This document shows positions 7,593 to 58,643 of a DNA stretch of 64,000 nt, one piece after another (positions within the stretch are counted from its first letter, which is position 1; the number at the start of each line of letters is the position of its first letter). The position numbers were made by a program, and so were the translations under genes. The notes beneath the pieces are model-generated. The model was not told the origin of the DNA. It was given only the letters and a program-made list of their open reading frames with translations, and ran no database searches. Source of the stretch: an uncultured Pseudomonadota bacterium (lineage in GTDB: Bacteria; Vulcanimicrobiota; Vulcanimicrobiia; Eremiobacterales; Eremiobacteraceae); contig CAVTNB010000001.1 of the NCBI GenBank assembly GCA_963736005.1, positions 864,001 through 928,000 on the forward strand. Reading direction: 5' to 3'.

Positions 7593-7981
7593 TTCCCACT
7601 ACGCCCGACCTTAACCACAGCCTCCGCGCTTCGCCGTATCGGTAGTATGTAGGCCACCTTCGCTTTCCGCTGTTTCGAATCCAAGGATATCTCGGCGACG
7701 AAAGCGTGAATTGCCGTTCGCAGTTCAACGCGGTCAACGCTGTGCGATTGGTCTGCGAGTGTCTTTAGGCGTTCCTTCAGTTCATCAACGTTGTGTGGGA
7801 TCTGACTCGCTCGTGACAACTCCAGCGTCGCTAAGGCCTTGCTATCCGAGGCGACCTGCTGTTCCAACTCCTCGTAGCGTGCATTTATGGACTTCGGCAT
7901 GGCTCCATCCTCGAAATTAAGGCGCAGGTTTTGCTGCTTGCGCATATTGTCGTTTATGCTATCGCGTAATGTGTGAAGCAT
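7574..7981 (-). pseudogene. 3' remnant of a probable large serine recombinase reading into the tRNA 3' end
   Basis: Coiled coil then ELRTAIHAFVAEISLD...YILPIRR...GNCGGWI*, ending inside the tRNA. No catalytic N-terminal domain present. Confidence 0.65.
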
Positions 7982-9399: not shown

Positions 9400-9504
9400 C
9401 TGTGGCTAAGGTCAGTTCGTTAGGGAATTGCGGGGGATGGGAGTTTCCGTTAGGACCGACCGAACCAGGAGGAGTCACAGCGCTAATCCCCATCGCGTTT
9501 TGAC
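9400..9504 (-). repeat. Inverted att-like junction containing the tRNA-fMet 3' core
   Basis: Reverse complement of 9415-9504 aligns with 16299-16389. The next bases (GACCTTAGCCACAG) match GACCTTAACCACAG downstream of the tRNA. Confidence 0.85.
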
Positions 9505-9523: not shown

Positions 9524-9630
9524 CGCCGTATCGGTAGAACATAGGCGACTTTCGCCTTGCGCACTCTTGAGTCCAGAGAAATCTCGGCAACAAAGGCATG
9601 AATTGCCGCTCTCAGTTCCTTACGATCCGA
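9524..9630 (-). pseudogene. Second recombinase 3' remnant
   Basis: Translates SDRKELRAAIHAFVAEISLDSRVRKAKVAYVLPIRR, homologous to the tail of 7574-7981. Confidence 0.8.
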
Positions 9631-16389: not shown

Positions 16390-16407
16390 AAGACTCTATC
16401 AGCGGAG

Positions 16408-16453
16408 CGCCGTATCGGTAGGATATAGGCGACCTTTGGTTTGCGCACTCTTG
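16408..16453 (-). pseudogene. Third recombinase 3' remnant
   Basis: Translates RVRKPKVAYILPIRR. Confidence 0.7.
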
Positions 16454-30090: not shown

Positions 30091-31509
30091 ATGAGTAAAG
30101 AGCCAGCTTTGCGCCGCACTCTTGGACTTGCGGATGTGACGTTGTTCTTTGTCGTCGCCGGTTCGAATCTGCAGTGGGTAGCAGCGGCCGCTTCAACAGG
30201 ACCAAGCTCCTTGGTCATTTGGCTCTTGGGCGGTGCCTGCATGTTCGTACCTCTGTCGATCGTCGTGGTGTTCTTGGCCGCGCGTTATCCTGACGAGGGT
30301 GGATTGTACGTTTGGAGCAAGCGCGCATTCGGACCGTTTGCCGGGTTTATCTCCGGCTGGACCTACTGGACTTCAAATCTTCCATACTTTCCCGCGTTGC
30401 TCTATTTCATGGCGGGCAGCGTTTTGTATTTCTATGGCGGAAGCGCCGGGTGGCTCTCGGGTTCGCCTTTGTACTTTATCAGCGTTGCTCTCGCCGGCCT
30501 CGTCTTGACCACGGTTCTCAATATTCTTGGATTCGACATAGAAAAGTGGCTGAATAATGTTGGCGCTGCCAGCCGCTGGGGCGTCACGATGCTCCTGATC
30601 GTGCTTGGCGTCGTCGCGTGGCGGAAGTTTGGTTTTGCCACGCCAGTGAACCTCGCGACCCTACGGCCAGGCTTGCACGTCACGGACCTCGTGTTTTGGT
30701 CGACCATCGCGTTTGCCTGGACGGGTCCCGAAGCGATACCTTTGATGAGCGGTGAGATCAGACAGCCACGGCGCACCATTCCTCTCGCGTTGGCACTCGC
30801 AGCACCCGCAATCGCTGTGATTTATATCTTTGGCACGGCGGCCGTGCTTGCAACCCTCAAGCCCAATGACACAAACGCTCTCTACGGCGTCATGCAGGCG
30901 ATCAGCGAGGCGAGCACGCGGTTTGGCTGGACGATGATTACTCCGGTGGCTGCGGCGTTCGTGATGGTGAGTTGCCTGGCAAGCGCAGGTGCTTGGCTTG
31001 GCGCCGTGGCGCGCCTTCCGTTTGTCGCGGGATTAGATCAATACCTACCCAAGGGGTTCGGCCGCATGCACCCGCGCTTTGGGTCCCCCGTGGTTGCACT
31101 CGTGACGCAGTCTGCAATCGCAGCAATTTTTATTTTCCTGGGCCAGGGCGGCACCTCGGTGCGGGGGGCGTACAATGTCCTCGTCAGCACGACAGTCATC
31201 AGCACGTTGTTGCCGTTTTTGCTGTTGTTCGCGTCTGGATTCACACTGAGCGCAGGTCCGACTCGCGAGGGGGATATTCGAATACCCGGAGGGAGATTCT
31301 CGATCGCGACGGCGAGCATGATTGGCTTTTTGACCACCTTGGGCGCAGTCGTGCTCACACTTGTGCCGCCGTCCAACGAGCCGAACAAGCCCCTGGCGGT
31401 GGCGAAGATCCTTGGCTTGACGGCGGTTATGCTTGGAAGTGGCATCGTGTTTTATGTCGTCGCTGCGCGCCGCAAGCGGCGCCTCGAAGCTGCTGGGCTC
31501 GTATCGTGA
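30091..31509 (+). CDS. APC-family amino acid permease
   Basis: YPDEGGLYVW, FAWTGPE, about 12 TM segments. Confidence 0.92.
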   Translation: MSKEPALRRTLGLADVTLFFVVAGSNLQWVAAAASTGPSSLVIWLLGGACMFVPLSIVVVFLAARYPDEGGLYVWSKRAFGPFAGFISGWTYWTSNLPYFPALLYFMAGSVLYFYGGSAGWLSGSPLYFISVALAGLVLTTVLNILGFDIEKWLNNVGAASRWGVTMLLIVLGVVAWRKFGFATPVNLATLRPGLHVTDLVFWSTIAFAWTGPEAIPLMSGEIRQPRRTIPLALALAAPAIAVIYIFGTAAVLATLKPNDTNALYGVMQAISEASTRFGWTMITPVAAAFVMVSCLASAGAWLGAVARLPFVAGLDQYLPKGFGRMHPRFGSPVVALVTQSAIAAIFIFLGQGGTSVRGAYNVLVSTTVISTLLPFLLLFASGFTLSAGPTREGDIRIPGGRFSIATASMIGFLTTLGAVVLTLVPPSNEPNKPLAVAKILGLTAVMLGSGIVFYVVAARRKRRLEAAGLVS

Positions 31510-33164
31510 CCGGCCGAGCGACAGCCCACGACGGCGCAACGCAGATGCAATCCGCCATGTTCTTGCTGGCGTTTTTGCTGCTGCCGCTCTGGGCATGTAC
31601 TCGGGTAAGCACGAGCGGTCATCCCAGCGTGCAGTCCGCAACCGTTCACGGCGTCGTCCGCTACGCAATTCCCAACGACCTCAACACGCTGAATCCCGTC
31701 CTTGGAGGTCTCGCCTACGAAAACGCCATCGAGGAAGCGATTTTCAACGGGCTTGTCAAGCTCGACGATCAACAGCGACTGATCCCCGATCTTGCGACTG
31801 TGGTGCCCTCGCGCGCAAACGGTGGAATCAGTGCGGACCGCAGAACCATCACGTATCACCTGCGCCACGGCGTCACCTGGCAAGATGGCGCACCATTCAC
31901 CTCCGCCGACGTGTCGTTCACCTTCTCCAAGATTATGGATCCAAACGTCAACGCGTCAAGTAGCGCGCCGTATACGCACATCGCAAGCCTGACAACGCCC
32001 GACGCTTACACCGCGGTCGTTCATCTCAAAGAGCCATGGGCTCCGGCAGTCGCTCAGTTGTTTTGCAACGGAGAGCAAGGATCGATCATTCCCAAGCACT
32101 TGTTGGAACACACGGCGGATTTCAATCGCGACGTATTCGGAGTGCATCCCATCGGCACTGGGCCGATGCGCCTCATCCGATGGGATCGTGGTTCGGAGAT
32201 CATCCTCGTCCCAAACCTTCACTATTTCGTCGGCGCGCCGAAAATCCAAAAGCTCGATATCTCCATCATCCCCGACGCAAACACGAGACTGACGACGCTG
32301 ACATCTCACGAGCTCGATTTTGCGACGTTGGGCAATCCAGCTCAAGTCGCAAACCTACGAATGGTTTCGGGGCTGAAGGTGTTGCTCGTCAAAAACTACG
32401 CCCTTTGGTTCATCATCCTCAACGTTACCCGAGCGCCACTGGATGATGTGCGCGTTCGGCGCTCGCTCGTGCTGGCGCTCGACCGGCCGCATCTGACGGC
32501 GACGACCTTCGTTGGCACGGCGATACCCGCTGATTCTGAGATTCCGCCTTTCAGTTGGGCATATGACCCCAACAACGACTCGCCGCCTTACGATTTGACG
32601 CAAGCGAAACAGTTGCTCGAAACGACTGGCTGGCATCTTGGTACCGACGGCATCCGGCGCAAGGGTGATCAAAAGCTCTCCTTTAGCATTGTGAGCAGCA
32701 CCGGATCCGCTATCGGCGCATCGTTGTCCGAGCAGCTTCAACAAGCATGGCGAGCGGTGGGCGCAGACGTCTCGATTCGATCGGAGCCTCTCAACGTGCT
32801 GCGCAGCCCAACTGGCATGCTCGTGACGGGCAACTTCCAGGCCGCGATTGCATCGTTCATTTTCGATCCCGATCCCGATCGCTCCACAAATTTGGGCAGC
32901 CAATATATCGGAGCACGCGGCTTTAACGAATCTCGATACGTGAGCGCGCGTTCCGATCAGCTGACCGTCGCGGCAGTTTCCGTCTACGAGAGAGAACAGC
33001 GCAAGCCGCTCTATGCGCAGTTGCAACGCTTGTGGAACACCGATCTTCCGGTCATTCCCATTGCATGGCAGGACAACATCGACGTCGTCAATACGGATCT
33101 GCGCGGCTTTCGGCCTGAGCCAGTCAATTCGGATTTTTGGAATATCGAGCAATGGCAGATCTAG
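31506..33164 (+). CDS. Peptide ABC transporter substrate-binding lipoprotein (family 5)
   Basis: Lipobox LWAC; LRHGVTWQDGAPFTSADVSFT, PIGTGP. GTG overlaps the permease stop; ATG 31546 is an alternative start. Confidence 0.9.
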   Translation: MTGRATAHDGATQMQSAMFLLAFLLLPLWACTRVSTSGHPSVQSATVHGVVRYAIPNDLNTLNPVLGGLAYENAIEEAIFNGLVKLDDQQRLIPDLATVVPSRANGGISADRRTITYHLRHGVTWQDGAPFTSADVSFTFSKIMDPNVNASSSAPYTHIASLTTPDAYTAVVHLKEPWAPAVAQLFCNGEQGSIIPKHLLEHTADFNRDVFGVHPIGTGPMRLIRWDRGSEIILVPNLHYFVGAPKIQKLDISIIPDANTRLTTLTSHELDFATLGNPAQVANLRMVSGLKVLLVKNYALWFIILNVTRAPLDDVRVRRSLVLALDRPHLTATTFVGTAIPADSEIPPFSWAYDPNNDSPPYDLTQAKQLLETTGWHLGTDGIRRKGDQKLSFSIVSSTGSAIGASLSEQLQQAWRAVGADVSIRSEPLNVLRSPTGMLVTGNFQAAIASFIFDPDPDRSTNLGSQYIGARGFNESRYVSARSDQLTVAAVSVYEREQRKPLYAQLQRLWNTDLPVIPIAWQDNIDVVNTDLRGFRPEPVNSDFWNIEQWQI

Positions 33165-35140
33165 CGAGAACGCGCGGAAGGCTCGGACCCCGCGATCTCT
33201 ATTCGTTGCCAATCGTCGGATGGTGTGCGCTGCACCCACAGCGCACTTCCCTAGCGTATGTGGTCACTCGGCTTGATGAAGAAGCAAATGCGTATCGGGG
33301 CAGCGTTCGTCTCCTCTTGATCGATCCAGGGCGACTTGACAGTCGCCCACTACAATTTCGTGAAGATGCGAAGGTCTTAACGCCAGGAAACGCGCGCGAT
33401 CAAGCCCCGCAGTGGTCCGCCGACGGCAAGAAAATATTCTTTCTCAGCGATCGTGCCGGCACCACCCAGCTGTGGGCGATCGACCCTGACGGCGGTGACG
33501 CCACGGCATTACCCATCCTCCCCGGCAACGTTTCCGAATTTGCCGTTGCTCCAAATGGCTCGTACATTGCGGCGATCGCAACCCCCACCCAAAACAAGGA
33601 TGAGATCGAGCGACGCGGTTGGCGGCGCATCACGCGCCTGCGCTATCGGGCCGATGGGCCGGGCTACCTCGATGACAAACCGCAGATTTGGCTTTTTGAC
33701 CTTGCGGCTGAGTCAGCCAAACAAATAACAGATGGCTCCGGCTTTGTTGCAGGCGTCGCGTGGAATCCAAAGGGAACGAGCCTGGCTTTTTGCGGCGATC
33801 ACGAGGCTAGCGCAGACTCCCTTTGGCGCCGCGAGTTGTGGACAGCATCGGCGACCGACGATTGGCAGCCGCACGCAATCACACGGTTCGCGACGGCGAT
33901 CGAAGCGCCATCGTGGTCGCCGGACGGCAGGCGGATCGCGTTCTGCGGGATCGAAGAAGCGCATGGCGCTGGAGGCCTGCGTAACCTGCGCGTGTTCGTA
34001 GTGGATGCGACGGGGCGAAACCAGGCCTGCTGGACTCCACACGAAGAGTGGACGTGCGGCAATTTCATCTTGACCGACGTTGGCGCAGCAGGTAGCTTGG
34101 TGGCACCCGTTTGGGTATCAGACGGAGACGTCGCCGTGTTAGGCTCCTGTCGCGGCGCGGCGCAAGTTTTTCGAGTAAGCACTGGCAAGAGCGCGGTCGC
34201 ACTCACCCCCGCCACCATGTCGGTGACACACTTTGCTGACCTCGGCTCAGACGCGATCGTGCATTGCTCGTCCAATCAAGCGACACCACCTGAATTGTAC
34301 GTATCACGGGAAGGTAACGATGCCACGCGCCTCACTCGCGAAACTGAGGAGTGGAGTTCGCGTAGCTCGGTGGCGCCCGCGACGCACCTTACAGTAGCGA
34401 GCGCTGGGCGAGAGATCGACGCGTGGCACCAGAGCGGCATCGGTCCCACACCCCGCCCGTGTATCCTATACATTCACGGTGGCCCGCACTTTGCGTATGG
34501 CCACGCGTATGTCTTCCACTTTATCGCGCTGGCGGCTGCGGGATACGACGTCGTGTATTGCAATCCGCGCGGCAGTCAAAGTTATGGCGAAGGGTTTGCG
34601 ATGGCGATCGCGGGTAATTGGGCGCAGCTTGCTTTTGACGATTGTATGGCCGCGCTCGATGTCGCGCTCGGGCGCTTTCCAATTGACCATTCGCGGCTTG
34701 GTGTCGCCGGAGGAAGCTATGGCGGCTACTTGACCGCGTGGACGGTGGCACATACGAACCGCTTTGCGGCGGCAGTCGCGTTACGGCCAGCGACGAATTT
34801 AGTGAGCCTCTGGGGGACGTCCGAAGTGGGGAGGATGCTGGCCGAAGACTTTGGCGGCAGCCCATTTGAGGTACCGCAGGTCTACGCGAACGACTCGCCT
34901 CTCACCCACGCTGGCACGATCGCGACGCCGCTCTTGATCATCTTTGGAGAGCGCGACTACCGGACACCGGCCGAGCAGGCGGAGCAATTGCTCACCGCTC
35001 TGCTTGAGCGCGGAGTCACAGTTGAGGGCCTGCTCTTCCTGAACGCAGACCACAACCTTTCGCGTGGGGGACCACCGCGGCAGCGCATCGCTCACGAAGA
35101 GGCGATTTTGGAGTGGTTCGATCGCTTTTTGAAAAGGTAG
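33152..35140 (+). CDS. S9-family peptidase (beta-propeller + alpha/beta hydrolase)
   Basis: PQWSADG and PSWSPDG repeats; IHGGP, NPRGS, GGSYGG, DYR, DHNL. Confidence 0.92.
   Translation: MADLARTRGRLGPRDLYSLPIVGWCALHPQRTSLAYVVTRLDEEANAYRGSVRLLLIDPGRLDSRPLQFREDAKVLTPGNARDQAPQWSADGKKIFFLSDRAGTTQLWAIDPDGGDATALPILPGNVSEFAVAPNGSYIAAIATPTQNKDEIERRGWRRITRLRYRADGPGYLDDKPQIWLFDLAAESAKQITDGSGFVAGVAWNPKGTSLAFCGDHEASADSLWRRELWTASATDDWQPHAITRFATAIEAPSWSPDGRRIAFCGIEEAHGAGGLRNLRVFVVDATGRNQACWTPHEEWTCGNFILTDVGAAGSLVAPVWVSDGDVAVLGSCRGAAQVFRVSTGKSAVALTPATMSVTHFADLGSDAIVHCSSNQATPPELYVSREGNDATRLTRETEEWSSRSSVAPATHLTVASAGREIDAWHQSGIGPTPRPCILYIHGGPHFAYGHAYVFHFIALAAAGYDVVYCNPRGSQSYGEGFAMAIAGNWAQLAFDDCMAALDVALGRFPIDHSRLGVAGGSYGGYLTAWTVAHTNRFAAAVALRPATNLVSLWGTSEVGRMLAEDFGGSPFEVPQVYANDSPLTHAGTIATPLLIIFGERDYRTPAEQAEQLLTALLERGVTVEGLLFLNADHNLSRGGPPRQRIAHEEAILEWFDRFLKR
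33329..33353 (-). repeat. REP family B inside the S9 peptidase CDS
   Basis: GTAGT-GGGCGACT-GTCA-AGTCGCCC with a perfect stem; read on + as GRLDSRPL. Confidence 0.85.
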
Positions 35141-35178: not shown

Positions 35179-36072
35179 CTGAACGTCGCGGTGCATTTGC
35201 GCGACGAGTTCGTTCGATCCGGCGAAGCGTTGCTGTTCGCGCAAGAAATGCCAGCGCGAGAGGGTTAGCTGATCGCCGTAGATACTGCCCGAAAAATCGA
35301 CGATGTAGGTTTCGACGGTGAGCTCGCTCCCGCCGAATGTGGGCTTGTCACCAATGCTCGTGACCGATGCGTGTTGTTTGCCGCTCAGTTCGGCGGCGGT
35401 TGCGTACACACCAGATGGCGGAATGAGCTTATCAGCCGCGTGGTGCAAGTTTGCCGTGGGAAATCCGAGCTCATGGCCGCGGCCGGCACCAGTTGTTACC
35501 AGACCACGGACGCGATATGGGGAGCCCAGCAGCTCGTCGGCTTGGTCGAAACGCCTCTCCGAGATGAGCGATCGAATTCGAGAACTTGAAACCTTTTCTC
35601 CATCGCGTTCGAGGAGCGGCGCTGCGTTGAAGGCACATCCCTTTTCCGTCAGCACGCGCTCGGCAAGCGCGACGCCTCCCTCCCTTCCCTTACCGAAGCG
35701 CCACTCGGGCCCGACAGTAAGGGCGCGAGTGCGCAGCCGGTCGTAGAGAGTGTCCGTCAAAAACGTTTCCGCCGGAATGCTTGCAATCCGCTCGTCGAAA
35801 GGTAAAAGAAAGAGGACGTCAAGATCGCAGCCCGCTAGAAGGTTGATCTTCTCATCGAGCGTCGTGAGGCATTTGGGCGCTTGACCAGGTTGCAAAAATT
35901 CCTGCGGATGATGTTCGAAGGTCAAGGCGCCGGCCCTTGTGTTCTCCCTGCGCAGCCCAACGAGCTGCGAGAGCACCGCACGGTGGCCGATATGCACGCC
36001 ATCGAAGACGCCGATCGTGAGTAAGAGGTCGGCGTCTGCTTCATAGTCGTCGATGGAGCGGACGATGCGCAT
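35161..36072 (-). CDS. ribF: Bifunctional riboflavin kinase/FAD synthetase
   Basis: IGVFDGVHIGH, VSSSRIR, GRGHELGFPTAN, ETY. Confidence 0.95.
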   Translation of the reverse strand: MRIVRSIDDYEADADLLLTIGVFDGVHIGHRAVLSQLVGLRRENTRAGALTFEHHPQEFLQPGQAPKCLTTLDEKINLLAGCDLDVLFLLPFDERIASIPAETFLTDTLYDRLRTRALTVGPEWRFGKGREGGVALAERVLTEKGCAFNAAPLLERDGEKVSSSRIRSLISERRFDQADELLGSPYRVRGLVTTGAGRGHELGFPTANLHHAADKLIPPSGVYATAAELSGKQHASVTSIGDKPTFGGSELTVETYIVDFSGSIYGDQLTLSRWHFLREQQRFAGSNELVAQMHRDVQLAADL

Positions 36073-36111
36073 GGCGGCACCACAATTCGCGATGAGCGCT
36101 CGAGAGCCTTG

Positions 36112-37026
36112 TCACTGCGCCGCAAAGACTCGCATTGGCGCGAGGATGGTGAGAGCGTCACGCGTGAACACCACGCCGATGCCAATCAGCGCGCCTTGAT
36201 GGGTGACGAGTGCATTTTCGTTTGAGTTTGGGGCGATTTTCCAATCGCCCCCTACAGAGTTCAAAGGGAGGCGAACTTCGTTGCCGGCATTGAAGCGACG
36301 AGCACCAGCTTCGTCAAGCTCGACGCGCGGGTTGTGGAGCACGCTTAACGGATCGATCAGGCAGGCGCGAAAATCTGCGGCTATGCGCGACGGAACAACA
36401 CTTTCCCGCAGCGTAAATGGCCCAGACGCAACACGCAGCAACGAGCCCATCCTCGCTGGCAAACCTATATGTCGCCCGAGATCTTCGCACAAGACGCGCA
36501 CGTATGTGCCTGCGTCGCATTCGACGTACAGCCGGGCGCTCCGCGTCCCCAATGCGTCCGGAAGCACTTGGAGCTTGTAGAGTGTGGTTGCGCGCGGCGC
36601 GCGGGGAACGGTCTTGCCAGCGCGTGCGCTCCGATACAATGGCTTGCCCTCAACTTTTATCGCGGAGTGCATTGGGGGCAGTTGTGTTCCCGGTCCAAGG
36701 AGTGCCGCCGCCGCGTCTGGCAAACGTCGCTTCCAATCATCTGGAACCTGGGCGCGTGCAATAACCTGGCCGGCGCCGTCGCCCGAATCAGTTTGCTCTC
36801 CAACGATGAGTTCGAACACATACTGCTTGCGCGAGTCTGCGATCAGCGGAAACAAGCGAGTCGCTTTTCCGACGCCGAGGACGAGGACGCCGCAGGCCCT
36901 CGGATCGAGCGTACCCCAATGGCCAACGGCTGCTCCCCCGCAGGCGTGTTTCACCCAATTCCCAAACGCCGCAGAGCTGGGCCCGGGCGGTTTGAATGCG
37001 TTGATGAACCCGAAAGGAGCGCTCAA
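36112..37026 (-). CDS. truB: tRNA pseudouridine(55) synthase
   Basis: GHWGTLDP, PPMHSAIKVEGKPLY, CDAGTYVR. Confidence 0.95.
   Translation of the reverse strand: MSAPFGFINAFKPPGPSSAAFGNWVKHACGGAAVGHWGTLDPRACGVLVLGVGKATRLFPLIADSRKQYVFELIVGEQTDSGDGAGQVIARAQVPDDWKRRLPDAAAALLGPGTQLPPMHSAIKVEGKPLYRSARAGKTVPRAPRATTLYKLQVLPDALGTRSARLYVECDAGTYVRVLCEDLGRHIGLPARMGSLLRVASGPFTLRESVVPSRIAADFRACLIDPLSVLHNPRVELDEAGARRFNAGNEVRLPLNSVGGDWKIAPNSNENALVTHQGALIGIGVVFTRDALTILAPMRVFAAQ
36230..36255 (-). repeat. REP family A inside the truB CDS
   Basis: Identical to the intergenic copies; translated VGGDWKIAP. Confidence 0.93.
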
Positions 37027-38944: not shown

Positions 38945-41527
38945 TTACGGGGTGACTTGTTCCATCGCGTAGGCTTCGATGACGTCGCCCTGTTTGATGT
39001 CGTTAAAGTTTTCGATCGCCATGCCGCACTCATACCCTTCCGTCACTTCGCGTACGTCGTCTTTGAAGCGTTTCAGAGAAGCTAGTTTTCCTTCGTAGAC
39101 GATGGCGCTGTCGCGCAGCACTCGAACGCCGGCATCTCGGGTGATCTTGCCGCTCTTGACGTAGCAGCCGGCGATGGTGCCGATCTTGCTGACTTTGAAG
39201 ATCTGACGCACTTCGGCTTGACCCAGCACGACCTCGCGCTCTTGCGGCTTGAGCATGCCGGTCATGGCTGCTTTGACCTCATCGATGGCATTGTAGATGA
39301 CGTCGTAGAGGCGAATGTCCACACCTTCCGCTTCTGCCTTCCGAGCGATCGTTGCGTCGGGTCGGATATTGAAGCCTATGATGATGGCGTTGGACGCGCT
39401 CGCGAGCATGACGTCGGACTCGTTAATGCCGCCCACGCCCGTATGGATGACGCGCGTGCGCACTTCGTCGTTGACCAGACCGTCGAGCTGCGAGCGCAGA
39501 GCTTCGGCTGAGCCTTGCGCATCGGCTTTGATGATCAAGTTGAGCTCTTTGAGTCCGCCCTCTTTGGCTTGCGCCAAGAAGCCATCGAGCGTCACCGTGC
39601 GACGCGTTGTGGCCATGCGCTGTTCGCGCTTGCGCTGGCTGCGCTTAGCAGCAAGCTCGCGCGCGTCGCGTTCATCGGAGACCACTTCGAGGATGTCGCC
39701 CGCTGATGGCACGTCGGACAAGCCCATGATTTCTGCTGGAATCGACGGCCCCGCGCGTTTGATTGGCTCGAGTTTGTCATCGAACATGGCGCGCACGCGA
39801 CCCCAGGCCGAACCCACGACCACGACATCGCCGTTGCGCAGCGTGCCGTTCTTGACGAGGACGGTGGCAACCGGACCACGCGACCGGTCCAGAAGTGCTT
39901 CAATGATCACGGCTTGCGCGCGGCGGTTCTTATTCGCCCGCAGCTCCAGCAAATCGGCATTGAGCAACACCATCTCGAGCAGTTCGTCAAGGCCGGTCTT
40001 CTGTTTGGCGGAGACCGGGATAAACTGCGTCTGACCGCCCCAATCTTCTGGCGTCAGTCCTAGGTCGGAGAGCTGTTGCTTCACGCGGTCGACATTGGCG
40101 TTTGGTTTGTCGACCTTGTTCACGGCCACGACGATGGGCACGCCAGCTGCACGCGCGTGATTCATGGCTTCAATGGTTTGCGGCATGACGCCGTCGTCTG
40201 CAGCAACCACCAAGATGGCGACGTCGGTGACTTTGGCACCACGCGCGCGCATTTCGGTAAACGCTTCGTGACCAGGCGTATCGATGAAAGTGATCTTGCG
40301 ATCGCCGTACTCGACCGTGTACGCACCGATGCGCTGTGTGATACCCCCAGCTTCGCCGGCAGCAACCTTCGTTGAGCGAATGGCGTCGAGGAGCGAGGTC
40401 TTCCCATGGTCGACGTGGCCAAGCACGGTGACAACCGGCGGCCGTGGCGTGAGCGAGCCGGCCGGGTCTGTATCGGCGACGATCTCAGGTGGCTCTTCGC
40501 CCGCTTCCTTAATAATGATGTTGAAACCAAAGCGGCGCGCGACTTGCGACGCAACATCGGAGGAGATGTGCTGGTTGATTGTGGCCATCGTCCCCATCTT
40601 GATGAGTTGGGCGATGACTGCGCCAGCCTGTGTCTCCATTGCGGCCGCAAGCTGCTGAACCGTGACGAGATCTGGGATCTCAAGGTCTTTGAGAACAGCC
40701 GGCTCGGCAACTGGAGCTGCCGTTGATGCTTTGTGGCGACGTTCTGTCTTCTTAAGAAGCTCCTCGCGCTCGCGTTCCTTGCGATCGCGCTCTTGATCTT
40801 CGCGGCGCTTGCGGCTAGAAGCCGGCGTGCTGGGCGGAAGCGACGGAGCCAGTGGACCTCCGCCGAGTGGACGTCCGGGCATGGGGCGTCCTGGCATCGG
40901 TCTTCCAGGCATGGGTCTGCCGGGAAGCGGTCGACCTGGCAGCGGTCGCCCAGGCAGGCCTTCGCGGCGGATGGCCGGACGAAGCGGGCCGCCAACCGGC
41001 GGTCGCGGCGCGCTGCCGAGTGGGCGCTGCATTGGGTGTTCGGCCGGCGTGGGCCCAACGGCTTGCGGCCTTGCGGCTACCGGTGCAGGCGTCGATGGTG
41101 ATGCGGAAGCAGCCGGCACAACTCTATGAGGAGCGGCCGGGCGACTGGGGCGCATGGTGGCTGGAACGGGTTTGAGTTGCGGTTCGGCGGGTGCTTGCGA
41201 TGGAACAACTGCGCTAGGCGCCGTCGCAGTGGCAACTGGAGGAAGCGCGGCGGCCTCAGCCTTAGCGGAAGCCTTAGGCTTTTCGATAGGCTTCTCCGCC
41301 GCGACCGGCGCCCCATTGCCTGCGGTTTGCTTCGCGGTTGGCTTGTGGGTCTTCGCGGCCTTGGCGAGATTGCCGAGCAACACGCCCTTGACGATTTGCG
41401 CTCGATGTTCGTCGATGATGGACATGTGCGTCGTCGCACGTATGCCGACTTTGCTCAGCAGCGCGATCGTCTCTTTGCTCGATAGCTTGAGCTCTTTCGC
41501 GAGCTCATGGACTCGTACGGTTGACAT
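38945..41527 (-). CDS. infB: Translation initiation factor IF-2
   Basis: [38 protein letters not shown]. Confidence 0.98.
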
Positions 41528-41538
41528 TTTCTCCTATT

Positions 41539-41614
41539 GGGCGACTTGAAGGTCGCTCGTAGTTGGGGCGATTTTCCAATCGCCCCCCAACATTTTTGGC
41601 GATTTCCAATCGCC
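41539..41614 (-). repeat. REP cluster (B, A, degenerate A) between ylxR and infB
   Basis: 41539-41559, 41565-41591 and 41598-41614. Confidence 0.85.
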
Positions 41615-41616
41615 GG

Positions 41617-41859
41617 TTATAGTTTTCGGGCCTCCCAGGGAGCTTCGCTTGCAACGCCGCTCAGTGCCCTGTATCGCTTGTTCTTCGACACGCGTGTTCC
41701 ACACTCCGGTGAACACAGGTATGCCCCCCGGCCGCTTTTGCGCCCGCTCGCGTCCACGCTCCACCCGGTGCTGTCGTGGACGAAGCGCATGAGCCGAAAC
41801 TTTTCGGCTCGAGTCTTGCACGCCACGCATTGCCGGGTGGGCACATGACCTTTGTTCAC
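41617..41859 (-). CDS. ylxR: YlxR/DUF448 RNA-binding protein
   Basis: PTRQCVAC...LMRFV...GRGAYLC; located between nusA and infB. Confidence 0.9.
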   Translation of the reverse strand: MNKGHVPTRQCVACKTRAEKFRLMRFVHDSTGWSVDASGRKSGRGAYLCSPECGTRVSKNKRYRALSGVASEAPWEARKL

Positions 41860-41864
41860 CTTGC

Positions 41865-43208
41865 CTAGTTCCCCGCACCAGTCCTGTCGCTGTCCTCCTC
41901 GGCTACGGGTTCGTCCTCGCCGTCATCTGTTACGCGCTGCAACTCTTGCAACTTGCGGATGAGATCTTCGTCCTGCGCGAGCATTTCTGGGGTGAGCTCG
42001 ACGCCAGTCTGCTCGGCGGCAATTTCCGCCATGGCCGCAACTTGCTCGTCATCTTTTTCCTCTTCGACGCGCTGCTCGACGACCTGCGTCCATTGCTCTT
42101 CGCTATGGATGTCGATGCGCCAGCCGGTCAGCTTCGCGGCAAGTCGCACGTTTTGCCCTTCCTTGCCAATGGCCAGCGATAATTGGTGCTCGGGCACGAC
42201 GGCTTCTGCGAGGTGCTCGCGCTCGTTGAGATGGACCGAGACAACTTTTGCGGGCTGCAAGGCATTGGCGACGTAGGTTGCAGTATCTGCCGACCATTGG
42301 ATGACGTCTATTTTTTCGCCGTGGAGTTCCTCGCTGATGTTGTTCACGCGAGAACTACGCGGACCGAGGCACGCGCCCACGGCGTCAATATCCTCTTCAT
42401 TCGTCCAGACCGAAACTTTGGAGCGAGATCCGGCCTCGCGCGCGACATCTTTGATTTCGACCAGACCTTGATCGACTTCCGGAATTTCCTGCTCGAAGAG
42501 ACGACGCACGAGATTTGCGTGGCTGCGAGAGAGAATGACTTGCGGGCCCTTGTTTGTCTTGCGAACCTCCATGACGTAGACGCGAATGCGCGAGCCGATG
42601 CGAAATGATTCGCGCGGGACTTGCTCCGAGAGCGGCAAGATGGCTTCCGCCTTGTCGAGATCGATGAACATGTTTCGCTGCTCGTAGCGCTGCACCGTTC
42701 CGGTGATGAGGCGATCCAACTTCTCGTTGAATTCGTCGAACACCACGTCGCGCTCGGCCTCGCGGATGCGCTGCACGATGACTTGCTTGGCCGTCTGTGC
42801 AGCAATGCGCCCGAATTCTTTGGGCGTGACTTCGATGTCGTAGTTATCCCCGATCTTGTATTTGCCGCCTGCGTCGGCGACGCTAAGCTCGAGAACCGGA
42901 TCGGTCACTCCTTCGACGACTGCGCGCCGGGCAAAAACGCGATAGGATCCGTCGTTGCGATCGACGATGACAACTGGATTGCCGACGGCCTCGGCTTCGC
43001 GCACGAAGTTTCGCTTGTAGGCAGAAACGAGCGCAGCTTCGAGGGCCTCGAGCAATGTGTCGGCGGGCAAATTCCGGTCGCGCTCCAGTTCTTTGAGCGC
43101 TTCGATCAGTTCCGGATTGGGCTTTGCAGGTGCGACTGCAGAGGACCCATTGCCGCCAGCGGCTGATTTCTTCAATGTTTTTCGGGGCGCCATTATCGCT
43201 TCTTCCAT
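41865..43208 (-). CDS. nusA: Transcription termination/antitermination factor NusA
   Basis: [36 protein letters not shown]. Confidence 0.97.
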
Positions 43209-48178: not shown

Positions 48179-48798
48179 GGGCGACTATCAAATCGCCCCA
48201 AGGTTCGGTAGGGGGCGATTGGAAAATCTCCCCTAAAACCACCGATCGAGAACGCCGCTATACGGATATGCGGTGATACCATCCGAGATGTTGGCGCGTA
48301 CCGGATTCGCTAGAATGTATCTCACAAAGTCTTCTACCTTTTCATATTCGCGAACAATGTGGTCGTGAAATCCGGGCTGCCAGTGCCATCGAATTTGTGA
48401 AATTTTCCAGGCTTGCTCCCGGATTCGCCGTTTTAGCTTTGCGACGATCGCTGACAGGCTGTGCTTCGCTCCGCGTAGTCTGATGAGCAGGTGCAAATGA
48501 TCCGGCATCAAGCAATAGCAATTGAGCCAGTACCAGCCCTGCTCCCGATAGGAAAAAATGACATGTCTTACAGACTCACATACCGCCGCATCAGTGAATG
48601 CTTTCCTGCGCTCGGCTACGCAGAGCGTAACGAAGTACGTGCGTTCAGCAGAATAATCAAAATCTTTCAAGCGCCGGATGACGCCGCCAGTCATGTTGGT
48701 TAAATCACTTGGGATACCGCCACCGACAAGGTATGAAGGGGCGATTTGCCAATCGCCCCCTACATAGATCTAGGGGCGATTTGCCAATCGCCCCCTAC
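48175..48798. mobile_element. REPtron: RAYT gene flanked by inverted pairs of family A REPs
   Basis: REPs at 48175-48199 and 48208-48233 (+), and 48738-48763 and 48773-48798 (-). Confidence 0.9.
48233..48694 (-). CDS. rayT: REP-associated tyrosine transposase (Y1 HUH, IS200-like)
   Basis: YFVTLC, LMPDHLHLL (HUH), WQPGFHDHIVR, YILANP (catalytic Tyr). Confidence 0.92.
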   Translation of the reverse strand: MTGGVIRRLKDFDYSAERTYFVTLCVAERRKAFTDAAVCESVRHVIFSYREQGWYWLNCYCLMPDHLHLLIRLRGAKHSLSAIVAKLKRRIREQAWKISQIRWHWQPGFHDHIVREYEKVEDFVRYILANPVRANISDGITAYPYSGVLDRWF

Positions 48799-51256: not shown

Positions 51257-52413
51257 TGGCCGCCCTCGACGCGCCATTGCTGCCCATTCTGAGAAGTCTC
51301 TGTCTGGCAGCGAGCCTCGCCGGCATTGCATACCTGGGCTTTGCAACGCTGCGTCTTTTGGCTTTTGCTCGCAAAGAAAAGCAGCCGAAGGGCGCTTTTT
51401 CGCCGGGCGTTACGGTTCTCAAACCGTTGTACGGTGCTGAACCGCAGCTGTTTGAGAATCTCAGCTCGTTTTGCGATCAAGACTACGAGCGATTTCAGGT
51501 GATTTTCGGGGTTCGCGACGCGGACGACCCCGCGGTTGCCACCGTCAAAGAGGTCATCGAGCGATTCCCTAACCGAGATCTCTTCCTGTGCGTCGACCCG
51601 CGCGCTCGAGGCGTCAATCTGAAGATTGCCAACGTCATCAACATGATGGAGCATACCAAACATGATGTTGTTTTCGTCGCCGACAGCGACACTCGCGTCG
51701 ATCGGGAATATCTTCGTTCGATGGTTGCTCCCTTTGCGAACCCGGCCGTTGGGGCGGTCACCTGCCTTTATCGCGGGGTGCCGGTTGCGGGCTCCGTGGC
51801 GGCATTGGGTGCACTCTTCATCAACGATCAATTCGTTCCAGCCGTGCTCGTTGCCATCGCCCTTTCGCCCATGGACTTCTGTTTGGGCGCTACCATGGCA
51901 GTGGCGCGCAGCGCGCTTGATAAGATCGGCGGCTTCGAATCGCTTGCATCGTTTCTTGCGGACGATCGCATGCTCGGCCGGAAAGTACGGGAGCATGGAT
52001 TCGATGTCGTCTTGAACTCTTACGTCGTGGAACACGACGTCGTCGAGCGCAACCTCGCGAGCCTGTGGGCTCACGAGCTGCGCTGGGCCCGCACGATGTT
52101 CTCCGCTCGCCCGGCCGGTTACGCATTTTCTTTCATTATGTACGCTGTGCCGATGTCGCTTCTCTATTGGGCCGTCTCCCGTGACCTTATTGGCGGCGCC
52201 CTGCTAACGGGCGTGGCCCTCGGACTTCGCTTTGGGCTTCATTACGCCGCGCGGCGAGCATTGCGGATTAGGTCAGCGGATAGCCCATGGTTGATTCCGT
52301 TGCGCGACCTGCTTGGACTCTGCGTCTGGGTGGCAACATTTTTCGGACGAGGTGTGCGCTGGAGAGACCAGGATTTTATGATCGATTCGGCCGGCCGAAT
52401 GGAGAGGCGTTGA
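51253..52413 (+). CDS. hpnI: Hopanoid glucosaminyltransferase-like GT2
   Basis: VTVLKPLYG, NLKIANV, ADSD, GAVTCLY, LADD, HELRWART. Confidence 0.85.
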   Translation: MMAALDAPLLPILRSLCLAASLAGIAYLGFATLRLLAFARKEKQPKGAFSPGVTVLKPLYGAEPQLFENLSSFCDQDYERFQVIFGVRDADDPAVATVKEVIERFPNRDLFLCVDPRARGVNLKIANVINMMEHTKHDVVFVADSDTRVDREYLRSMVAPFANPAVGAVTCLYRGVPVAGSVAALGALFINDQFVPAVLVAIALSPMDFCLGATMAVARSALDKIGGFESLASFLADDRMLGRKVREHGFDVVLNSYVVEHDVVERNLASLWAHELRWARTMFSARPAGYAFSFIMYAVPMSLLYWAVSRDLIGGALLTGVALGLRFGLHYAARRALRIRSADSPWLIPLRDLLGLCVWVATFFGRGVRWRDQDFMIDSAGRMERR

Positions 52414-55400
52414 TGAGGATGCAAGAAATGCGCGCGAATAAATTCGCGCCACTACATTGCCTGATTCTCGTGTTACTCGTGTGCGCTGCGCCGGCCTTGG
52501 CGTACGATCCGGTCAGCCTTGTCGATCCTCTCATTGGTACGTCCGGCAATTTCACCGACGGCCCCAGCGATACGTTTCCAGGCGCCGACGCACCCTTTGG
52601 CTTGGTACAGTGGAGCCCGGATACCACATCGCAACCGCCGGGCGGCGGTTACCTTTATGGTGATAGTCAAATCACCGGCTTCACTCTTACGCACCTGAGC
52701 GGAGCCGGCTGTCCGGTCTTCGGCGACATCGGCATCTTGCCCACGATCGGCCCCATTGCCGACCCTGCCGATGCCAAGCAGCCCTTCACGCACGTGACCG
52801 AAAATGCGGCGCCGGGCTATTACGCCATCATGCTTGGCCAACCTGGAATCATGAGTCGGCTCACAGTAACCACACGCTCGGGTTTAGGCAGCTTTACTTT
52901 TCCCGCAACACCACAAGCCAACATCTTGATCAATGCGGGGTCGAACCAAGCCGGTGTTGCGGGCGCGTCAGTCAGGTTTGTCAGCGATCAAGAGATCGTC
53001 GGCTCTGCGACGGCGGGATGGTTCTGCGGCATGCCCGGAAGCTATACAGTTTATTTTGCGCTGCGCTTCAATCGCCCGTTCTTGACATACGGTACCTGGC
53101 TCGGCAATCAAGTGACCGCACAAAGCGGACAATCGAGCGGCACCCGGGCCGGTTCTTGGGTCACCTTCGATACGACCCAGCAGCAAACGGTCAAGGTCCA
53201 GGCCGCCATTTCGTTTGTGAGCATCGATGGCGCGCTTGGGAATTTGCGCAGCGAAGCGAGGACATGGGATGTCGACGCGGTTGCCGCCGCGACTGGGCGT
53301 GCGTGGCGCGACGAACTGAATCGCATTACGGTCGAGGGTGGTACGCCCGTACAACGACGGGTCTTCTACTCGGCGCTCTATCACGCGATGCTTCATCCGA
53401 ATATCTTCAGCGACAGCGATGGCCAATATCGCGGATTCGACGGTCGCGTGCACCGAGTAGACGGCGGTCACGTTGAGTACGCCACATTTTCGGGCTGGGA
53501 TGTCTATCGCACGCAGATTCCTCTTGTTGCCATGCTCGATCCGCAACGGGCCAGCGATATGATGCGCTCACTCGTGCATGCGGCACAGCAGAGCGGATGG
53601 CTGCCCAAGTGGTCCCTCGTCAACGTGGAGAGCGCAGTGATGGGTGGCGACCCTTCAGATCCCATCATTGCCGGCGCGTACGCGTTTGGCGCGCGAGATT
53701 TTGACGCACGCAGCGCGCTCGCGGCGATGGTCAAAGGCGCAACGCAACCGAGTGGCGTGCCGGGCCAGGGCTGGTACATCCAACGGCCGGGGCTGGCCGA
53801 GTACCAGGACCGAGGTTATGTGGTGAACGATCACACGACAAATGTCGCCCCCGTTGCCAATGGAGCGTCGCTCACGTTGGAGTACGCCCTTGACGATTTT
53901 TCCATCGCAGAGCTGGCGAAAGCGCTCGGCAACGGCCAAACCTTTCGCGAGATGATGGTGCGCGCACAGAATTGGTCGAACATCTTCGATGGATCTACCG
54001 GGCTCATTGCGCCACGCGACCGTGACGGAGCTTTCATGCAGACACCGCTAACCTTAAATGGTCAAAGCGGTTTCCAGGAAGGTAATGCTGCGCAGTACAC
54101 GTGGATGGTACCGCAAAACATGGCTGCACTGGTGAGCGCCATGGGCGGACCCGCCGTGGCGAACACTCGATTAGACGATTTCTTTACGCAACTCGATGCT
54201 GGGCAAGACAAACCCTATGCCTGGTTGGGGAACGAACCGACCATCGGAAGTCCTTGGGCCTACCTCAGCGCAGGCACACCATGGAAAGCCCAGCGCGTGA
54301 TTCGTGACGCAATGACACAACTGTGGGGCGATACGCCGGACGGCATCCCTGGCAACGATGACCTTGGAACCATGAGCGCTTGGTACGTCTGGTGCGCCCT
54401 CGGCCTGTATCCGCAGAATCCGGCCGCCGCGGTGCTCGACATCGGCGCACCGATTTTTAGTCACATCGTTATCTCAGGACCAAGAGCGACACGAATCACG
54501 ATCGACGCTCCGCAGGCTTCTACCGACGATGCCTACGTGGAGTCCTTGCGAGTGAATGGCAAATCTTGGCCGCGCAGTTGGATTGCTTTTGCCCCTCACA
54601 ATCCTTTGCGCCTGGACTTTACGCTTGGCAACACGCCGAATACCCGGTGGGCGGTATCTTCCAAGGACGCACCACCATCTTATGCTCTGGGGCCCGTGCG
54701 CATCCCCGCCTCTACGCTTGCGAACTTTTCTCTGGACACCCAACAGCTGGAAATTCAACCGGGGGAATCGAGCGCGTTGAGTTTTTCCGTGAACAACCCA
54801 GTTGGTGCGTCAAGCACCACTCTTGAGTGGCGCGCGATTGTGCCAGCGGGTTTGAGTCTTGTCGCGTCGAGTGGAAGCACAACTCTAGGACCCGGTCAAA
54901 CAAGCAGAGCAGCAGAGCACCTGAGCGTCGACGCGGCGACATCACCTGGGCTTTACGACGTTTCGATCGTGGGAAACGGCAATGGTGGCGCGCTCGTGCA
55001 TCGCGCGACCACAGTCGTGCGGGTAGCACGTCCTGGGCAGAGACTTGCGCTTACATACGTTACGAATTTTTTTGACGACTCAATCGTTGCCGTCGATTGG
55101 CAGACGCTCGCGTTCGGTGTGCCGATACCAGTGGCGCAGTATCCACGCGATGTGGCGCTGAGCCCTGATGGCATGCGCGCATATGTCGCCGACGAAGGAG
55201 CTAACGAAGTGAGTGTCGTCGATCTTGCGACGAGCTCGGTTATATCTACAATCCACGTTGGCGGCGGTCCGTGGGGGATCCGGGTCGCGCCGGACGGCCG
55301 CACGGCGTGGGTTGCGAACAACGCGGACAACAGCGTGCAGCCAATCGACACCGCAACCCTCGCCGCTGGAGCACCGATTCACGTCGGTTTGGCTCCAGGC

Positions 55401-55925: not shown

Positions 55926-55979
55926 GGGCGACTTGACAGTCGCCGCTATCGGCACGCGCGAAGAAATTCGCGCGACTAC
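55926..55979 (-). repeat. REP doublet (D + B)
   Basis: D at 55955-55979; B at 55926-55949. Confidence 0.88.
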
Positions 55980-58579
55980 ATTTTCGCCGCGGGGACCATT
56001 TGGCGAGCATCCAGTGCGCGCGACACTACGTCCTGCAGGCTCGCGAGGTGCGCACTCGTCATCTCGTCAAGGTTCGATCGCCCCATCGCCGTCTTGAGGT
56101 TTGCACGGAGATCGACGAGCTCGGCTCGGGCCATCGACTGCGCATCAAAGGGCGTTCCCGCTTCCGGTGCGAGCCAAATTTGCACGAGTTTTCGCGCGTA
56201 CCACTGCTGGGTGGCACGATGAACCTGGCCGATGCTGCGCAACCTGGGATCGTGCAAATCTCCAAACAGCGAGGTTTGCGTCCAGTCGAAGAGATCGGTC
56301 AAACTCATCGTTGCGCCAGGCTTCGCCTTCAACGACAAGTCATTGAGCCGTTCTAGCATGAGCGGTTGGAACATCGTTGTGAGTTCTTGCTGCGCGATCC
56401 CCGCTGCGATTTCGGCGATGGGGATATCATGGCGCGGCAGAGGGTTGTATGCCCAGGCTGCACCCGGGGATGTTTCCCATTCGGAATAGACCATACGGTT
56501 CAGCGTCGCCGGTGAAAAGCTCCAAGCGCCATCGGAGAAAATATAGTTGTCGAGCAAGTGAAACGCTCGAAGCTCGTCGGTGCGCGGCACCTGGACAAGC
56601 GGTGGGCTTGCACCAGGATCGCCTGGATACGAGCGAGACAAGTATTCCCCACCAATATAGTGTTCAGGCCACGTTGCGGCGATCGTATAGACCTGCGCAA
56701 AGATGGCGCCAAAGGCTGCACGCTCCTGGTCGTAAGAGTTGCCCGGCTGAGGCCAGTGCTGGTCCAAACTCGAGAAGAGATCGTGCGAGAGCTTGAGCTG
56801 AGTTTCGCCCCAGCTCAGCGGATCGTTCGTCAAATCCCACTGGGCAACGCGCGGATCGATCGCGTGGCCGCTGCCGTAGTCGACGTCTTCATCGCTCGCG
56901 AAGCGAAACAGCGGGTTCGTCCATTCGCTTGCCCAGCGGTTCAGAGTTGGAACCTCGTCTTGCGGCGAGCGCGCTCCCGGAACGCGAGCGTAGCCCCAAT
57001 GAATCGCATGATAGTCATACGGCCCAAGGGCGGTTTGCCAATAGGTTCCTTGCGGGTAGCCTTTCGGCCACAGATTCAGAGGCGCGTATTCCATCACGGA
57101 CGTCGCGACACCGTATTTCTCAGTGAACGACTTGCTCTGCAGCTCTTTCGCGCTGTAGGCCATCGAGCCGATAAAATTGTGCTGCAATCCAAAGCCGTGC
57201 CCCGACTCATGCACGACGAATGACTGCATCAATTGATCGTTGTACTGCGCGAGCGCCGAACCGGTCAACGGATGACCCATGGCGGCGAGCGCGATTCTGC
57301 CGAATGTGGCTTGCTGCCTTTTGCCCTGGGCGTATTCCTCATCGCGCCCTGCAAGGGCGATGCCCGCGCCACCTGCGGTTGGCTGCGTGAGGAACTGCCA
57401 CGAGGCATTCGAGAAGGACATGACGTCGGCGTCAATCACGATGTTCGTGCGAATTTCTTGACCGGTGCGCGGATCCCAGATTTGACTTTCGGCTGCGTAG
57501 CCACCCGAATTTGACTGTGTAAGCCAGATGATCGTGTTGTAGCGGACGTCATCAGGATCCCAGTTGGGATCGTTCGGTTGGTCCTTCACTTGCACGGCAT
57601 CGCTAATGCCAATCCTCTCGAAAGCAGCATTCCACCTGAGGATGCCTTTGCGGATCGAATCCCGGTACTGCGTCGGAACGTTGTCTGACATGTAGTAGAT
57701 CATAGGATGTTTTGCGGGTGACATCGGCTTGCTTGGATCCGACGGCTGCATGTTCCAACGCACGACATACCGGTTAAGACGCGTGTATTTTGCATCCGTG
57801 GCGAAGTTGAGAAACGCAGAATCGAAAAACCCTACGCGAGAGTCGGCGAGCCGCGGTGTGTAGTCGCCGTCATTCGGGGGCTGCACGATGTTGTAGGCAA
57901 TACGAATTCCAAGCGAGCGCGGGTCTGGCACGTTGTCAATGGTTTGGGGATCATCGCAGGCCCAGGTTTGATCGGCCGTGATGATGACGTTGTCTGGAAA
58001 TGCCTTGGTTGGGCCGAACAGGGTGCGATCTGAATCGAGCCGATACATTTGTTCTGGATCTGGGCCGGTAACCGTTTTGAGGACCGCCGCGAGATCGTAG
58101 ACGTCTCCGAGGAAGAACGAGGCATCGAACACGAGGTGGCCGCTCACCGCATCGGTCGCAACGATCGGGGCAACGCCAACGACTGAATTTGCGAAAGTAC
58201 GCTTAATGGCGCGTTGTGCTGGATCGTTGCCGGGAGCGATAAAGTAGGTATTTGGCAATGTCACGACGATCTTGTTGTCGCTCTTGCTGAAACGGATGAT
58301 CCGAGCAAAGGATGTGATGCCGCCGGGAATGACGTTCCAACCGCCGATGCCATTCACTTGTTCGGCGCTGGCGATAAAATCTTGGTCAAGCTGCGACGGC
58401 GCGATTTCTATGTAAACCTTGCCGTCCTTACGGATAATATTGAAGAGACCGTTTTGGACTTGCGCGCCGGCAACGAATGTCGCGTACGCGGCGGGAGCGG
58501 AACTATCGTCGGCGCGGGCGATGGACGGCAGCACGATAAGCAATGCAACGAGCGTTCCAAACCAGCGGGTCGACTTCAC
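55976..58579 (-). CDS. Secreted metzincin metalloprotease (DUF5117/DUF4953 type), paralog 1
   Basis: PRLADSRVGFF, HESGHGFGLQHNF, SVMEY Met-turn, GPYDYHAI; AGGAGG RBS and GTG start. Confidence 0.92.
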   Translation of the reverse strand: MKSTRWFGTLVALLIVLPSIARADDSSAPAAYATFVAGAQVQNGLFNIIRKDGKVYIEIAPSQLDQDFIASAEQVNGIGGWNVIPGGITSFARIIRFSKSDNKIVVTLPNTYFIAPGNDPAQRAIKRTFANSVVGVAPIVATDAVSGHLVFDASFFLGDVYDLAAVLKTVTGPDPEQMYRLDSDRTLFGPTKAFPDNVIITADQTWACDDPQTIDNVPDPRSLGIRIAYNIVQPPNDGDYTPRLADSRVGFFDSAFLNFATDAKYTRLNRYVVRWNMQPSDPSKPMSPAKHPMIYYMSDNVPTQYRDSIRKGILRWNAAFERIGISDAVQVKDQPNDPNWDPDDVRYNTIIWLTQSNSGGYAAESQIWDPRTGQEIRTNIVIDADVMSFSNASWQFLTQPTAGGAGIALAGRDEEYAQGKRQQATFGRIALAAMGHPLTGSALAQYNDQLMQSFVVHESGHGFGLQHNFIGSMAYSAKELQSKSFTEKYGVATSVMEYAPLNLWPKGYPQGTYWQTALGPYDYHAIHWGYARVPGARSPQDEVPTLNRWASEWTNPLFRFASDEDVDYGSGHAIDPRVAQWDLTNDPLSWGETQLKLSHDLFSSLDQHWPQPGNSYDQERAAFGAIFAQVYTIAATWPEHYIGGEYLSRSYPGDPGASPPLVQVPRTDELRAFHLLDNYIFSDGAWSFSPATLNRMVYSEWETSPGAAWAYNPLPRHDIPIAEIAAGIAQQELTTMFQPLMLERLNDLSLKAKPGATMSLTDLFDWTQTSLFGDLHDPRLRSIGQVHRATQQWYARKLVQIWLAPEAGTPFDAQSMARAELVDLRANLKTAMGRSNLDEMTSAHLASLQDVVSRALDARQMVPAAKM

Positions 58580-58594: not shown

Positions 58595-58643
58595 GGGCGA
58601 CTTGACGGTCGCTCGCCACGCGCGAATAAATTCGCGCGACTAC
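58595..58643 (-). repeat. REP doublet (D + B)
   Basis: D at 58619-58643; B at 58595-58619. Confidence 0.88.

Follow-up and report, generated by a model that had tools for sequence, protein, structure and literature searches.

The truB gene of a bacterium of the family Eremiobacteraceae contains, inside its reading frame, an intact copy of a REP, which raises the question of whether such a copy is a single recent insertion into a conserved gene or the present state of a site that REPs have occupied for much longer. The gene lies in the window, i.e., the whole stretch of 64,000 nucleotides that was analysed, which belongs to a 2.84 Mb metagenome assembly with 84% completeness (G000). Its REP sites were compared with 2.80 Mb of the closest congener (G002, about 89% DNA identity).

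In the Di Nocera et al. 2013 study (PMC3733652), as far as its available sections extend, intragenic GTAG and CGTC REPs are listed for numerous species, Opitutus terrae alone accounting for about 70 rows, and truB itself hosts REPs in S. maltophilia, S. alaskensis, and E. litoralis, and an RPE-1 element in R. conorii. The original prediction that in-frame coding insertion is nearly unprecedented for REPs is not supported in view of this list, and since the event in truB was already known, the window provides a further example of it. The intragenic REPs of that study are likewise single GTAG palindromes read in frame as 7–10 residues, many of which start with V from GTA. Genes of the same category are mostly hit there at different sites and, unlike the truB inserts in the sections seen (residues 10–16, 169–177, and 164–190), the present one occupies, by numbering, residues 258–266 in a C-terminal loop.

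The coordinates of the features are collected in Table 1. That 26 nucleotides equal to intergenic REPs are read in frame in truB was confirmed by three further identical copies in the window (5471, 5566, and 27094) and by 57 exact copies in the whole genome; 8 window copies with two or fewer mismatches to REP A were found, against a shuffle expectation of 0.00. The first G of the REP is the first base of codon 258, and the surrounding translation reads AGNEVRL-PLNS-VGGDWKIAP-NSNEN-ALVTHQGALIGIG. The REP was thus correctly placed between AGNEVRL and ALVTHQGALIGIG, with the correction that only 9 of the 18 residues between AGNEVRL and ALVTH are REP-encoded and the net gain is 24 nt, or 8 residues, relative to the congener, which has no copy in truB and 12 nt against 36 nt in the window.

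Table 1. Positions of the studied features in the window
Feature	Position	Strand	Details
truB	36112..37026	-	304 aa, intact; sole copy found in the genome
Asp41 of the TruB GHWGTLDP motif	36904..36906	-	
Hypervariable loop of the TruB C-terminal PUA-like domain	36214..36270	-	about residues 253–271; REP-derived peptides of several families in relatives
REP A copy in truB	36230..36255	-	26 nt; TruB residues 258–266, VGGDWKIAP
Layout of this copy	36255–36252; 36251–36243 / 36238–36230	-	GTAG tag; 9-bp stem; 4-nt loop
RAYT gene cognate to REP A	48233..48694	-	NF047646, 104.6 bits (cut-off 80); PF01797
REP A copy beside the RAYT gene	48208..48233	+	
Two REP A copies on the other side of the RAYT gene	48738..48798	-	at 48738 and 48773; inverted relative to 48208
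REP D in S9 peptidase gene (33137–35140, +)	33330..33353	-	in frame, GRLDSRPLQ
REP C at GH92 N-terminus (gene ends 55919, +)	52432..52455	-	RANKFAPLH

On three features (a 5′ GTAG before a short palindrome with a length of 20–40 nt, a high copy number with mostly extragenic copies, and a cognate RAYT gene between inverted copies) the truB element is assigned to the GTAG-REP class. It is a singlet with its nearest neighbours at 33330 and 41567, and not a REPIN doublet, whose two REPs are inverted and at most about 100 nt apart and which is proposed as the replicating unit in the part of PMC3116915 that was available. Like the RPEs of Rickettsia, in the accessible text of PMC3733652, PMC3184786, and PMC6649704, it is a palindromic repeat lying in frame in a conserved gene, truB included; however, RPE-1 measures about 105–146 nt and the short RPE-4 and RPE-6 are CGTC-tagged, with no dedicated transposase known, whereas the truB element has 26 nt, a GTAG tag, and a cognate RAYT. 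A 5-nt direct repeat is present at the sides of the truB copy; among 232 single copies of the genome 11 had repeats of at least 5 nt versus about 6 in shuffles, which gives no general target-site duplication.

The host gene was identified as truB by PF01509 (E 8.5e-39) and TIGR00431 (above cut-off), and its TTG start overlaps the stop codon of the upstream DHH gene in the order infB-...-rbfA-DHH-truB-ribF. The GHWGTLDP motif, whose Asp41 we take, from the TruB family motif, to be the catalytic aspartate, is unchanged in 121 of 121 homologues, and the dN/dS against the congener is 0.13 (289 codons, loop excluded). The structural model obtained with the 121-sequence alignment, in favour of which a single-sequence AlphaFold prediction with pLDDT 36 was set aside, reached pLDDT 94 and a TM-score of 0.86 to a solved TruB. 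The insert sits in the sole internal low-confidence stretch of this model (blocks 251–270 at 76 and 66), which is predicted to lie in the C-terminal domain between a helix-strand element ending near 252 and a strand at 271–276. According to the part of PMC12710931 that was available, TruB's N-terminal domain makes most of the RNA contact and docking puts the C-terminal domain at the acceptor stem. As judged from its sequence TruB is intact and under purifying selection; the concern that it might be truncated or non-functional is answered, for gene integrity, by the invariant motif, the low dN/dS, and the full-length predicted fold. The REP-carrying protein is best read as a working enzyme with a predicted tolerant surface loop, in which the inserted peptide is presumably expressed and would be near neutral for TruB.

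Four GTAG families were counted in the genome at three or fewer mismatches to 24-nt seeds: A (149 copies), B (186), C (213), and D (99). All four share the 5′ tag, and most of the stem is common to A and D. The 647 copies are divided into 487 intergenic, 100 overlapping a gene end, 20 near a gene end, and 40 internal ones, the latter defined as lying at least 30 codons inside a gene predicted by our own hexamer model (for family A 101, 31, 6, and 11, respectively), so that the claim of RAYT-associated REPs being read as protein segments is well founded. Three Y1 transposase genes are each flanked by their own REP family; by sequence these three loci resemble the REPtrons described in the accessible parts of PMC8266576, PMC3686654, and PMC3116915, in which a Y1 HUH transposase gene is flanked by inverted cognate GTAG REPs. 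Family A was present in 4 genomes of the genus and absent from the other 57 genomes searched. No RAYT flanked by D was found in G000, and a RAYT of another genome (L267 in G003) is flanked by A/D intermediates, so that D may be what is left of a branch of the A system. The congener has neither RAYT B nor RAYT C at the syntenic loci: about 2.6 kb of different sequence stands in place of the RAYT C gene (G002:C5 ~1186700–1189300) and RAYT B is largely deleted. A strand bias of REPs over long stretches was also seen, with 40–49 minus versus 10–12 plus copies per 200 kb in C1 0.6–1.4 Mb, where the GC skew is near zero.

The loop that holds the truB copy is variable throughout the relatives, being 13–36 residues long across the 121 homologues, including loops without a recognisable REP (the unpublished genomes G008, G011, and G013 were used only in this length comparison and in the tallies). 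At the DNA level an intact repeat was found in 3 of 29 truB loci of the family, namely, in the window, G028, and G022, the other 26 being without it. The G028 loop contains a B-type palindrome from its own genome-wide family of 89 copies with the tag GAAG, and in the G022 loop the repeat exactly matches a third GTAG family, an unrelated one with 36 copies. By these repeats, one TruB loop is re-occupied by different REP families in three genera. A search with PF01797 found no RAYT in either G028 (55% complete) or G022 (98% complete).

Additional occupied loops were recognised at the peptide level, and the REP origin of the P0003, P0004, P0005, P0007–P0011, P0018, P0023–P0040, and P0137 loops was judged from peptide matches only. 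The P0137 loop reads VAVEFIRP-PN-ERSSG, its mate in the 90% cluster, P0138 (97% similar), is of the VAPERSSG type, and another G022 repeat, present in 105 copies, translates into VAVEFIRP; this sequence points to a second REP inserted into an earlier one. When 338 7-mers taken from 50 natural REP variants served as the library, 6 or more of 7 positions matched in 10 of the 121 loops, those of the window and P0001 among them; this level was reached by 2 of 1762 segments from elsewhere in TruB and by 4 of 1210 shuffled sequences. Since kin are not independent, this test shows origin and not the number of events. The CGSASLLAL loops (P0007–P0011) look palindrome-derived with a best library match of 5/7, and tandem expansion was seen in the loops of P0131 and P0088.

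The insertion had been considered recent, which is not supported. In the TruB trees built with loop columns removed (FastTree n=79, IQ-TREE n=19; 42 of 121 homologues left out) the relevant branch is resolved as (P0005, (P0003, (P0004, (P0002, (window, P0001))))) with supports of 92, 82, 98, and 99. The deeper-branching P0005 and P0003 contain the REP-A/D-type peptides GGDWNIAP and VGGDCQVA, and P0004 and P0002 are empty, so that loops with and without a REP alternate along the tree. This tree would require a minimum of two changes (a loss that occurred twice, or one loss followed by a regain), and in addition the family type would have changed in P0003. The age of a REP cannot be read from its exactness, since at 16 of 95 orthologous single sites of the same family both G000 and the congener have an exact copy. 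Thus the truB copy may be young, and the site itself appears to be old. A metagenome scan with alignment A1 yielded 80 distant TruB loci (31–43% identity), none of them from Eremiobacteraceae.

The comparison of the two genomes placed truB among many similar sites. REP sites of G000 were mapped to the congener in 410 of 451 cases, where 216 contained the same family, 80 another family, and 114 none. For the sites inside predicted genes 33 of 34 were mapped (the exception being C1:1041151), and 29 of these 33 are in frame in both genomes; sucC (site before the likely start), dprA, mutL, and C3:84427 were dropped as the frame is lost in the congener. The 29 in-frame coding sites include 13 with the same family, 8 switched, and 8 “empty” ones, and 20 of the 29 differ in length; among the empty sites, 3 contain a decayed copy of unchanged length and at least 2 still have part of one. 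The switches occurred in recO, sucA, hemW, an S9 peptidase gene, mfd, rsmB, a glcF-like gene, and nuoG, four of them between the related families A and D and the other four involving the unrelated B or C. The trmFO copy has opposite orientations in the two genomes and is in frame in both, and the further hosts include valS, dnaE2, smc, gltX, dapF, and hemG. The frame that reads TAG is used by none of 41 coding copies.

Two of the sites named together with truB in the original prediction lie in the window. The S9 site is a real, switched one, in which the congener has REP A in another frame (GAICQSPPT). The GH92 site is also real and switched, REP A being read as GRFANRPLH in the congener, but it is N-terminal and looks like a signal-peptide n-region. 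At 52395–52480 (+) this apparent n-region is REP-encoded in both genomes (C in G000, A in G002), with a basic stretch before the hydrophobic core both times. Two tandem genes at 55976–58579 and 58640–61261, which belong to the Met-zincins (DUF4953/5117/5118), were rejected as insert cases, since the REP only supplies the stop: REP C at 55956–55979 and 58620–58643 (-) gives their TAG stops, and copies of family A or D are found at these sites in the congener. Separately, in hemG (C1:784217) and a GGDEF protein gene (C1:2018027) tandem 5′ parts of REP B form the in-frame repeats NVAAA/NVAAS and HVAAD, and hemG is 96 nt longer in G000 than in G002.

These data taken together make it likely that REP sites, once in a tolerant loop, are long-lived and are reworked by the active REP families, while selection keeps the in-frame outcomes. 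According to this scheme, a REP of a RAYT-associated family would land in the tolerant surface loop of TruB, which would then serve as a long-lived REP site and not as the place of a one-off insertion. The surviving REP would stay a RAYT substrate, and a copy of the family active in the lineage would overwrite it or nest in it with 10–20 nt of flank changed, or the copy would be lost; selection at the gene level would retain only those outcomes in which the frame is preserved and the TAG within GTAG is not read. The rewriting is probably performed by RAYTs via cleavage and strand transfer at existing REPs. In vitro, RAYTs cleave single-stranded DNA at dinucleotides that lie 5′ or 3′ of the REP and then rejoin it (PMC8266576, available part), and in the accessible part of the REPORTH study (10.1101/2024.10.14.618302) 13 of 20 fully conserved spaces have mixed REPIN types, for which RAYT modification or replacement (overwriting) was suggested. 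The simplest reading joins two published ideas. The mixed types of REPORTH are like the switches described here; however, they concern extragenic doublets of Pseudomonas chlororaphis, and here single REPs are exchanged inside coding genes with the frame kept.

The main competing explanation, that REPs hit a few tolerant loops independently and at random, so that the truB copy is a recent separate gain with no targeting of old REPs, is considered unlikely. It accords with the variable length of the TruB loop even where no REP is recognisable, with the empty loops of the two nearest relatives P0002 and P0004, with the exactness of the truB copy, and with the placement of intragenic REPs in flexible linkers or loops in the sections of PMC3733652 that were seen. 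However, for 8 of the 29 coding sites to be switched in place in this way, the tolerant target would have to be about 100-fold smaller than the coding sequence; under uniform placement 0.08 co-locations are expected, a null which itself overstates the target size, as tolerant loops are smaller. Also against independent hits, recO, sucA, the glcF-like gene, and rsmB contain nested chimaeras with the old GTAG as their starting point, and 48 of 49 switched single sites have the same orientation in both genomes versus 30.5 from local strand bias, a strand null that ignores gene direction.

The flanks and families of the switched sites bear on how the exchange proceeds. At the non-coding ones identity is 0.55–0.70 within 20 nt upstream versus about 0.9 further out, and family A is on the congener side in 38 of 49 switches. 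Among these 49 switches G000 has the copy nearer to its family seed in 21 and the congener in 9, with 19 ties, and therefore simple overwriting by the RAYT A of the congener does not fit. A strict rule of 5′-anchored overwriting that leaves the old 3′ arm was not borne out either: in 34 switches other than A/D a 3′ arm was found downstream in 5, a 5′ arm upstream in 3, and a 3′ arm upstream in 4, with 4/245 in the control. A search for a donor copy with truB flanks found none.

It is rather improbable that the exchange is host gene conversion between REP copies via their common GTAG end, without a RAYT step at the site. Such conversion could use the 5′ tag shared by the four families and the stem shared by A and D, some copies have at least 7 flank bases in common with another copy, at a higher frequency than in shuffles (e.g., family B of G000 upstream, 19 vs 3.9), and G022 has intact families with no RAYT found. 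Nevertheless, beyond the tag the B, C, and A palindromes share little, which would be too short for ordinary homologous recombination, and the family at switched sites tracks the RAYT set of each genome.

An adaptive or regulatory insert, whose hairpin would tune truB-ribF mRNA processing or whose peptide would tune TruB, with occupancy maintained by selection, is very improbable. Identical peptides are indeed kept at many orthologous coding REPs across 11% DNA divergence, as in valS, dnaE2, and smc, and the hosts include many DNA- and RNA-handling proteins, as they do in the accessible part of PMC3733652; but peptide, frame, and presence vary among close relatives, and most members of the family are without the truB copy.

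An assembly artefact, i.e., a repeat misjoined into truB of a metagenome assembly, is largely refuted and practically negligible, because the frame is kept and the same insert is found in a 2%-diverged strain and in two other assembled proteins. In run X1 one contig contains the left flank with the whole REP (35800–36256) and another the whole REP with the right flank (36229–36800), none of the X1 pieces listed spans both junctions, and this strain differs from the window at 18 of 1001 positions; runs X2, X3, and X6 cover the stretch partially, with the REP not spanned. P0001 and P0121, full-length proteins from other assemblies, are 97–98% identical to the window TruB and have the same peptide with 7–8 residue differences elsewhere; two of these match X1, so X1, P0001, and P0121 may not be mutually independent. 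The doubt whether the insert is supported by sequence data is thus largely removed.

The persistence and reworking of REP sites in tolerant loops, which we prefer, would have several implications. Two findings are apparently new and were not found in print, namely, that REP families are exchanged in frame within core genes and that a single TruB loop has been used repeatedly in the family. In the available sections of PMC3733652, whose supplement 3, parts 2-3, was covered for “pseudouridine” only, no comparison of family exchange at orthologous coding sites was found, and a search largely outside subscription journals found no literature on coding-sequence REP exchange, on REPs in the phylum, or on REPs of Eremiobacteraceae. 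Coding sites provide filled, empty, nested, and overwritten alleles between conserved codons, which are informative on the in vivo spread of REPs by RAYTs and on whether existing REPs are the targets. If overwriting is true, REP-RAYT systems would time and again supply core proteins with loop variation, and the short variable loops of Eremiobacteraceae would have to be interpreted as REP scars and not as functional motifs. The stronger proposal, that the REP-RAYT system is a site-directed diversifier of protein loops, in which a coding REP is a heritable target whose family, frame, orientation, and flanking codons are exchanged repeatedly by RAYTs, has in our estimation even chances. If it is true, dozens of core proteins (TruB, HemW, RsmB, RecO, Mfd, NuoG, and TrmFO) would vary their loops by transposase and not by point mutation, and frame-anchored coding sites would record the junctions of REP spread.

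Some minor observations were made in addition. Non-REP direct or inverted repeats, possibly ends of mobile elements or gene duplicates, are present in the window at 7632–7726, 9524–9618, and 16406–16453 and at 9415–9451/16353–16389. In two other genomes of the family truB is in pieces, with frameshifts or stops (G029:C1 ~41000–41900 and G030:C5 ~31000–32000).
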